Source: Escherichia phage ECO95 1-6-1. Taken from it: a DNA stretch of 12,743 bases. The stretch lies in sequence record OR845264.1; one strand, given 5' to 3'. The first letter of the stretch is position 1, and every line of letters begins with the position of its first letter. The notes beneath the pieces were generated by a model. That model saw only the letters and a program-made list of their open reading frames with translations. It was not told where the DNA came from and made no database searches. Below, one piece after another: positions 11,961 to 12,743 of this stretch. Both the position numbers and the translations under genes were made by a program.

Positions 11961-12743
11961 CTACTGGCTCATCCATTCTTTACGAAGGTCAGCGTTATCT
12001 CCCATGAGCATTTCAAAAAGCTCTTTCCAGTTCTCAGGAAGTTTAACAACATCATATACTGGGTTTTGAATCATCTCACGATATTCAGATTTTTCCAAAG
12101 AGCCAAGTCCCTTAATATAACGGATGCTATGTTTAGGTAGAGCATCTTTGGCACTCTCATATTCAGCGACTGTATAAAACCATTCTTGTTTTTTACCGAC
12201 CTGAGCGATGATTACAGGAGTTTTGACAAAGCGAATTCGTCCTTGCTCAAACAATTCTGGCCAATTACTAAAAAATCCGAGCAGAGAAGGATAAATGCTT
12301 CCTAGACCATCATGGTCAGCATCAGTCATAATAGCAATATTATGATAATTCAAGTTTTCAGCTTTTTCACCAAGAACTAATCCAGTGATTGCGCAAATAT
12401 CAAATAGTTCTTTGTTTTTAAGCATATCTGCATAAGACATACCCCAACTGTTGAGAACTTTACCACGTAATGGATAACCACCATGAAGTTCTTTATCACG
12501 AACATCAATAAGATATCCGATAGCAGAATCACCCTCAGTCAAGAAAAGAGTAGTGTCAGCATCTTTACCACAAAGATTCGCTTTGATATGTTTATGAACC
12601 TTAGCTTTAGAAGCCTTTTTAGCTGCTTTAGTTTCTGCTGCTTTTTCTGCCGCCAATTTACGAGCCAAAGCAGCTTCGATAATCGGCATTAGAATTGCTT
12701 CATTATTTAGAATAGCGCGTGAAATCTTTTTAGCATCAAGCTG
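11961..12743 (-). CDS. 39: DNA topoisomerase II large subunit (GyrB-like), C-terminal Toprim region; 5' end lies beyond the window edge
   Basis: Frame is open from the window edge (QLDAKKISRAILNNEAIL MPIIE...), so the ATG at 12689 is internal. Contains both Toprim motifs, TLFLTEGDSA and IMTDADHDG, in one ORF ending at TAG 11961-11963. Confidence 0.85.
   Translation of the reverse strand, partial: QLDAKKISRAILNNEAILMPIIEAALARKLAAEKAAETKAAKKASKAKVHKHIKANLCGKDADTTLFLTEGDSAIGYLIDVRDKELHGGYPLRGKVLNSWGMSYADMLKNKELFDICAITGLVLGEKAENLNYHNIAIMTDADHDGLGSIYPSLLGFFSNWPELFEQGRIRFVKTPVIIAQVGKKQEWFYTVAEYESAKDALPKHSIRYIKGLGSLEKSEYREMIQNPVYDVVKLPENWKELFEMLMGDNADLRKEWMSQ

Follow-up and report, generated by a model that had tools for sequence, protein, structure and literature searches.

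The phage topoisomerase relaxes DNA and does not supercoil it. In the record of phage T4, the large-subunit locus is annotated as gene 39 (516 aa), mobA, a two-piece gene 60, and a 50-nt bypass feature, in agreement with how an earlier note on the DNA analyzed here had described T4 (a split between genes 39 and 60, with a 50-nt gap after a glycine codon). The mobA gene is an HNH homing endonuclease gene, and the element that contains it split the T4 gene into 39 and 60 and brought in the 50-nt bypass gap. In T2 and T6, gene 39 encodes the whole 605-aa large subunit without interruption. The topoisomerase of T2 and T6 consists of two subunits, with T4 being the only known three-subunit case, and the T6 enzyme has been solved by cryo-EM (PDB 8ylu and related entries; Nat Commun 2024, PMC11461880). 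The MobA element has been described as inserted at aa 466-473, and its 3′ end was placed in the T4 clade at D490/G491 plus 9 nt (Manning & Atkins, bioRxiv 10.1101/2022.08.31.505936). The recoded region of the element, called 'homR', is 67-81% identical to the parental sequence, the parental segment that was deleted is ~64 nt long, and 'parental' genomes that do not carry the element are present in every clade (bioRxiv 10.1101/2022.08.31.505936). Here we compare with these systems a stretch of 12,743 nt from Escherichia phage ECO95 1-6-1 (OR845264.1), referred to as the window, which ends within gene 39.

The 3′ part of gene 39 is a single open frame

Translation of the minus strand at the edge of the window (12743..11961) gave a single open frame of 260 sense codons and a terminal TAG, with zero internal stops. 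The remaining two minus-strand frames of 11961-12743 contained 10 and 44 stops, and the chance of 260 open codons at the window G+C content of 35.6% is ~1.6e-9. Neither a stop codon nor an insert of ~50 nt after the DG codon, both of which were looked for, was found in the 260-codon frame. The gene 39 frame was still open at position 12743, and the first 345 codons lie beyond the window. The features of the locus are collected in Table 1.

Table 1. Features of the window and stepwise identity of the gene 39 region to T4 DNA
Feature	Position	Strand	Basis or remark
gp38 adhesin C-terminus, glycine-rich T2/T6 type, 111 codons	1..336	+	PF05268, 76.8 bits
Gene 52, GyrA-like partner subunit, 442 aa	4025..5353	-	PF00521 DNA_topoisoIV, 259.2 bits
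rIIA.1, immediately downstream of gene 39	11703..11906	-	PF24210 T4_RIIA1, 114.8 bits
Promoter-like site, TTTACT-17 nt-TATAAT, upstream TG	11932..11960	-	Consensus scan 10/12, sigma-70-like
Topoisomerase II large-subunit gene (gene 39, T2/T6 form), 3′ 783 nt	11961..12743	-	Codons 346-605 + TAG
Unoccupied MobA-element site, 63-64 nt	12297..12360	-	Identity steps versus T4
GGT CTA (Gly491 Leu492), adjacent codons at the T4 50-nt gap point	12303..12308	-	Alignment
DADHDG, Toprim DxD acidic cluster, D486/D488/D490/G491 (full-length numbering)	12306..12323	-	Translation
EGDSA, Toprim catalytic glutamate region	12522..12536	-	Translation; in T4 within gp39
Left flank up to Ala473			371/384 (96.6%) identity to T4 DNA
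DxD-coding 48 nt			35/48 (72.9%) identity to T4 DNA
Next 9 nt			4/9 identity to T4 DNA
Right flank to stop codon			335/336 (99.7%) identity to T4 DNA

The EGDSA glutamate and the DxDxD cluster bind the catalytic metal. On the minus strand, translation placed TLFLTEGDSA at 12551-12522 and IMTDADHDG at 12332-12306 in a common frame, the latter 71 codons past the EGDSA glutamate and followed by LGS at 12305-12297. The codons GAT GGT CTA GGA AGC occupy exactly 12311-12297 and are uninterrupted. The earlier note had assigned EGDSA and DxD to one ORF and had quoted these five codons, and its coordinates proved exact. T4 differs in that the DADHDG motif sits in gp60, right before the gap.

Domain searches with the 260-aa fragment gave 31.8 bits for Pfam TOPRIM_C (cutoff, 29) and 19.7 bits for Pfam Toprim, which is below the cutoff of 23.1. 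In a PDB search, structures of ParE, GyrB, and topoisomerase II alpha/beta aligned to the fragment at E values of ~1e-20, and these matches to Toprim regions support membership of the B-type subunit class. In bacterial GyrB and ParE, as in the B-half of eukaryotic topoisomerase II, a Toprim domain bearing the EGDSA and DxD motifs is likewise followed by a Toprim-associated C-terminal domain; these proteins are only distant relatives of phage gp39. The N-terminal GHKL ATPase and transducer were recognized in the 605-aa gp39 of Shigella phage SHFML-26, with 38.3 bits for HATPase_c and 51.1 bits for DNA_gyraseB. The fragment most likely comprises the end of the transducer region, the complete Toprim domain, and the Toprim-associated C-terminal domain.

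The fragment was 100% identical to aa 346-605 of the SHFML-26 protein. A 1044-nt query containing the region matched MLF4 (99.3%) and SHFML-26 (98.6%) in one piece each, and the gene is annotated as 1818 nt (605 aa) in MLF4, SHFML-26, and T2. The best PDB match was to 8ylu_C residues 346-605, which aligned as a single stretch (E value, 7e-173) and which belongs to the entry set matching the T6 gp39 structures of PMC11461880; the artificially fused T4 gp39-gp60 PDB chain aligned to the fragment in two stretches. Moreover, the T2 and T6 loci have the same flanking genes as the window (rIIA.1 and rIIA downstream and gp52 encoded elsewhere), and their gene 39 differs from that of the window by a few synonymous differences and in nothing of substance. 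Among the matches listed, the whole 12.7-kb window was closest to teqsoen and SHFML-26, at 96.9%.

Because relatives that are 98.6-99.3% identical have an 1818-nt (605-aa) gene, we infer that full-length gp39 of ECO95 1-6-1 is likely ~605 aa, with the N-terminal 345 codons supplied from the relatives. Alternatively, gene 39 could be split upstream of the window, within its first 345 codons, by an intron, an intein, or an endonuclease gene of the GIY-YIG or HNH type. The frame does run off the window at 12743, and other endonuclease and intein arrangements have been described for this gene in other phage clades (bioRxiv 10.1101/2022.08.31.505936). The relatives that were inspected (MLF4, SHFML-26, T2, and FL12) nonetheless all had a single 1818-nt gene, and the 383 nt upstream of the T4 split point were collinear with the relatives and gave no sign of a junction, such that we regard an upstream interruption as very unlikely. 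We conclude that the window almost certainly contains the 3′ 43% of a gene 39 that is ordinary and uninterrupted and belongs to a Tequatrovirus (T4-like phage).

The site of the MobA element is unoccupied

Comparison with the T4 proteins indicated where the T4 gene departs from the window. T4 gp39 aa 346-473 aligned to residues 1-128 of the fragment with 1 mismatch, T4 gp60 aa 31-160 aligned to residues 131-260 with 3 mismatches, and the two segments jointly covered 258 of the 260 residues with 4 mismatches. T4 alone has a 43-aa gp39 tail and a 30-aa gp60 head with no counterpart in the window, and the window alone has the residues E474 and N475, which are missing from T4. When the DNA was compared, with the left flank aligned on exact codon coordinates, identity to T4 changed in steps along the gene (Table 1). 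The ~1-kb mobA-containing insert of T4 entered after ...LVLGEKA, at window position 12360/12359, and the T4 50-nt gap fell, in the DNA alignment, exactly between the window codons GGT and CTA. Both T4 insertion points (after Ala473 and at Gly491/Leu492) lie inside the window and both are unbroken, which bears out the earlier claim that the gene is contiguous, with no 39/60 split, mobile endonuclease, or bypass gap.

In place of 63 nt of the window (12359-12297), T4 has 1116 nt that consist of the gp39 tail, mobA, the gp60 N-terminus, a recoded copy of the DxD segment, the 50-nt gap, and 9 further nt. The parts of the T4 cassette that belong to bypass, namely, the take-off GGA with UAG and the 50-nt gap, are all missing from the window. 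The T4 gap lies between the take-off codon GGA and the resume codon TTA, and the glycine codon of the window is GGT, not GGA. Aligned to T4 genes 39, mobA, and 60 and to T2, as the earlier note had proposed, the region was collinear with T2 and lacked the T4 insert and gap. Consistent with the published MobA element, the boundaries between window and T4 and the recoded segment agreed with those reported (bioRxiv 10.1101/2022.08.31.505936).

Searches for parts of the cassette in the window were negative. The 5′ part of the T4 gap sequence had no copy within the window at up to 3 mismatches, and a tblastn search with intact HY01 MobA against all six frames of the window returned nothing better than an E value of 5. 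A hidden endonuclease ORF in another frame was rejected, as the six-frame tblastn search gave no meaningful match. When the gp39 C-terminal and gp60 N-terminal extensions were searched against the window, the best tblastn E values were 7.6 and 0.059, over 6 and 13 residues, respectively, and in unrelated places. A scan of the whole window at the Rfam gathering threshold gave zero matches, and repeats around gene 39 were limited to short pairs of 14-17 nt, in keeping with chance.

A contiguous gene could also result from a 'hit and run', in which the MobA element was once present and the endonuclease and gap were later deleted, leaving a re-fused gene with footprints. Losses with retained C- and N-terminal extensions have been found in Aeromonas and Campylobacter phage clades (bioRxiv 10.1101/2022.08.31.505936). 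In the window, however, coding sequence for the gp39 tail and the gp60 head was untraceable, the DxD-coding segment matched T2 without a difference and shared only 72.9% identity with the element-borne copy of T4, and the protein was of parental length and had E474 and N475, as in the parental form. We rejected this history at the sequence level, as far as footprints are detectable, and consider it extremely improbable. Precise excision via recombination with a naive phage would look the same as never having been invaded. The window allele is best described as an 'empty-site' (parental) allele, which would either never have received the ~1.1-kb MobA element or keep no trace of it.

Some records that carry the cassette differ in mobA. 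The T4 reference record has mobA annotated as a 114-nt defective fragment with a separate '60.1' ORF (T4 locus slice 2971-3767), and HY01 has one intact 272-aa mobA ORF at that place (HY01 locus slice 2971-3789). Most other cassette records were 97-98.5% identical to the T4 reference segment and 11 nt shorter over it. Comparison of these sequences suggests that the mobA gene of the T4 reference is a pseudogene or contains indels.

Predicted enzyme composition and sensitivity to MobA

Translation of gp39 in ECO95 1-6-1 would be conventional, codon by codon. By analogy to T2 and T6, gp39 and gp52, which is encoded 6.6 kb away in the window, would together form a two-subunit A2B2 type IIA topoisomerase. 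In terms of PF00521, gp52 is short (442 aa) compared to its bacterial and eukaryotic counterparts. The locus should be annotated as one gene 39; gene 60, mobA, and a recoding feature should not be called.

The 171-nt junction region of T2 was 98.8% identical to the window, and 122 nt of it were fully identical; over these 122 nt, T2 and the window agree in the segment that is replaced by the MobA element. T2 DNA is reportedly nicked by MobA in this segment and acquires the split gene together with the gap (Bonocora et al. 2011, cited in bioRxiv 10.1101/2022.08.31.505936). Because ECO95 1-6-1 shares the segment unchanged with T2, for which nicking and transfer have been reported, it is predicted to be a naive and susceptible recipient in mixed infection with a MobA-carrying phage. 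ECO95 1-6-1 may serve both as a clean 'parental' comparator and as a predicted recipient for studies on homing of the MobA element.

The uninterrupted allele is common and does not mark a lineage

To describe how widespread the contiguous state is, phage records were searched with a 171-nt probe across both junctions. The probe matched in one piece in 454 phage records, including T2 (98.8%) and RB33 (100%), and a further 44 records matched it only partly; the T4 mobA-plus-gap segment was held by 43 records. The uninterrupted allele accounts for ~91% of the matching records. We conclude that a contiguous gene 39 is the majority and ordinary state, already described in the literature as the 'empty-site' allele, and that the uninterrupted gene is both the ancestral and the commonest state, with the T4 split and ribosome hop being a documented mobile-element exception. 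The uninterrupted gene 39 of the window is already known and matters little in itself.

Contiguity of gene 39 had previously been combined with the glycine-rich gp38 to place the phage with T2/T6-type relatives rather than with T4. Only a C-terminal fragment of gp38 is present in the window (1-333), and it covers profile positions 108-218 of PF05268. In HY01, a T2-type gp38 (PF05268, 243 bits) occurs together with the split gene, an intact mobA of 272 aa, and the bypass. Because HY01 mixes both types and contiguity is the majority state, gp38 type and contiguity do not form a lineage marker. The placing with T2/T6 stood for the two loci taken singly (a glycine-rich gp38 and a contiguous gene 39) and did not stand as a statement of lineage, given the mixture in HY01 and a contiguous state found in 454 records versus 43-44. 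We conclude that contiguous gene 39 and gp38 type assort independently and that the pair is not a lineage marker.

The first residues of the gp38 fragment belong to a stretch of ten glycines, and several more glycine-rich blocks follow, as is typical of the T2/T6 adhesin. In a BLASTP comparison with HY01 gp38, the last 24 residues alone aligned, with composition adjustment acting in the glycine-rich part. The limited alignment to HY01 would fit hypervariability of the receptor-binding segments that separate the glycine blocks.

A second endonuclease gene lies beside gene 39 in some relatives

In phage FL12, an uninterrupted 605-aa gene 39 is directly followed by a gene for a 265-aa endonuclease (FL12 locus slice 143-2757). 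The same endonuclease gene was found in ~30 other records and, in most of the annotated rows, beside the topoisomerase large-subunit gene. The FL12-type endonuclease has NUMOD3 motifs and an N-terminus that is MobA-like by eye. FL12 gene 39 differed from the window at 1 of 96 nt up to the DxD codons and diverged clearly over the remainder of the gene, down to its stop codon. The divergent 3′ tract of FL12 is presumably a co-conversion tract. Compared to FL12 over 11906-12330, the window has neither the endonuclease gene nor the divergent tract. In CJY920 (PQ349265.1), a T4-type mobA/bypass match (53265-54228) and an FL12-type endonuclease match (54573-55370) were ~350 nt apart, and two related homing cassettes seem to lie side by side at one locus.

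One tentative reading, which we think rather doubtful, is that ~12297-12360 of the window is a naive target at a hotspot common to two related HNH homing endonucleases, MobA and the FL12-type enzyme, with the cut site of the latter placed only by where sequence identity breaks. If both enzymes did cut there, either cassette could convert ECO95 1-6-1, and the locus would offer a natural setting in which to study how homing elements compete for one target. A hotspot shared in this way would bear on the relatives more than on the window itself.

Neighboring genes

The gene order of the window is of the T4 type: gp38 C-terminus, holin t, asiA, motA, gene 52, ndd, denB, rIIB, rIIA, rIIA.1, and gene 39. 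The names rIIB and rIIA were taken from the SHFML-26 annotation, their Pfam matches being weak and subthreshold, and denB, which had no Pfam match, was named from the same annotation. The 54-nt spacer between gene 39 and rIIA.1 contained no endonuclease gene, and no terminator-like site was found in 11600-12743 and hence none after gene 39. The final base of the gene 39 stop codon is also the first base of a strong promoter-like site upstream of rIIA.1 (Table 1). From the stop codon onward, T4 and the window agree over the initial 21 nt. As judged from its match to the consensus, the site is probably an early promoter for rIIA.1/rIIA.

Further observations concern the remaining genes on the minus strand. 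The rIIA product (9515-11692) weakly matched the GHKL-type ATPase family HATPase_c_3 over residues 43-143 (21.9 bits versus a cutoff of 25), and the rIIB product (8565-9503) had weak N-terminal helix-turn-helix matches (23.6 bits versus a cutoff of 23.8). An ORF of 120 aa at 7141-7503, for which Pfam gave no match, shares 19 nt with the start of the denB-equivalent ORF (7485-8042). In SHFML-26, the closest annotated relative, only an 87-aa protein is called where the window has the 120-aa ORF, a difference that may reflect start codon choice or a small indel.
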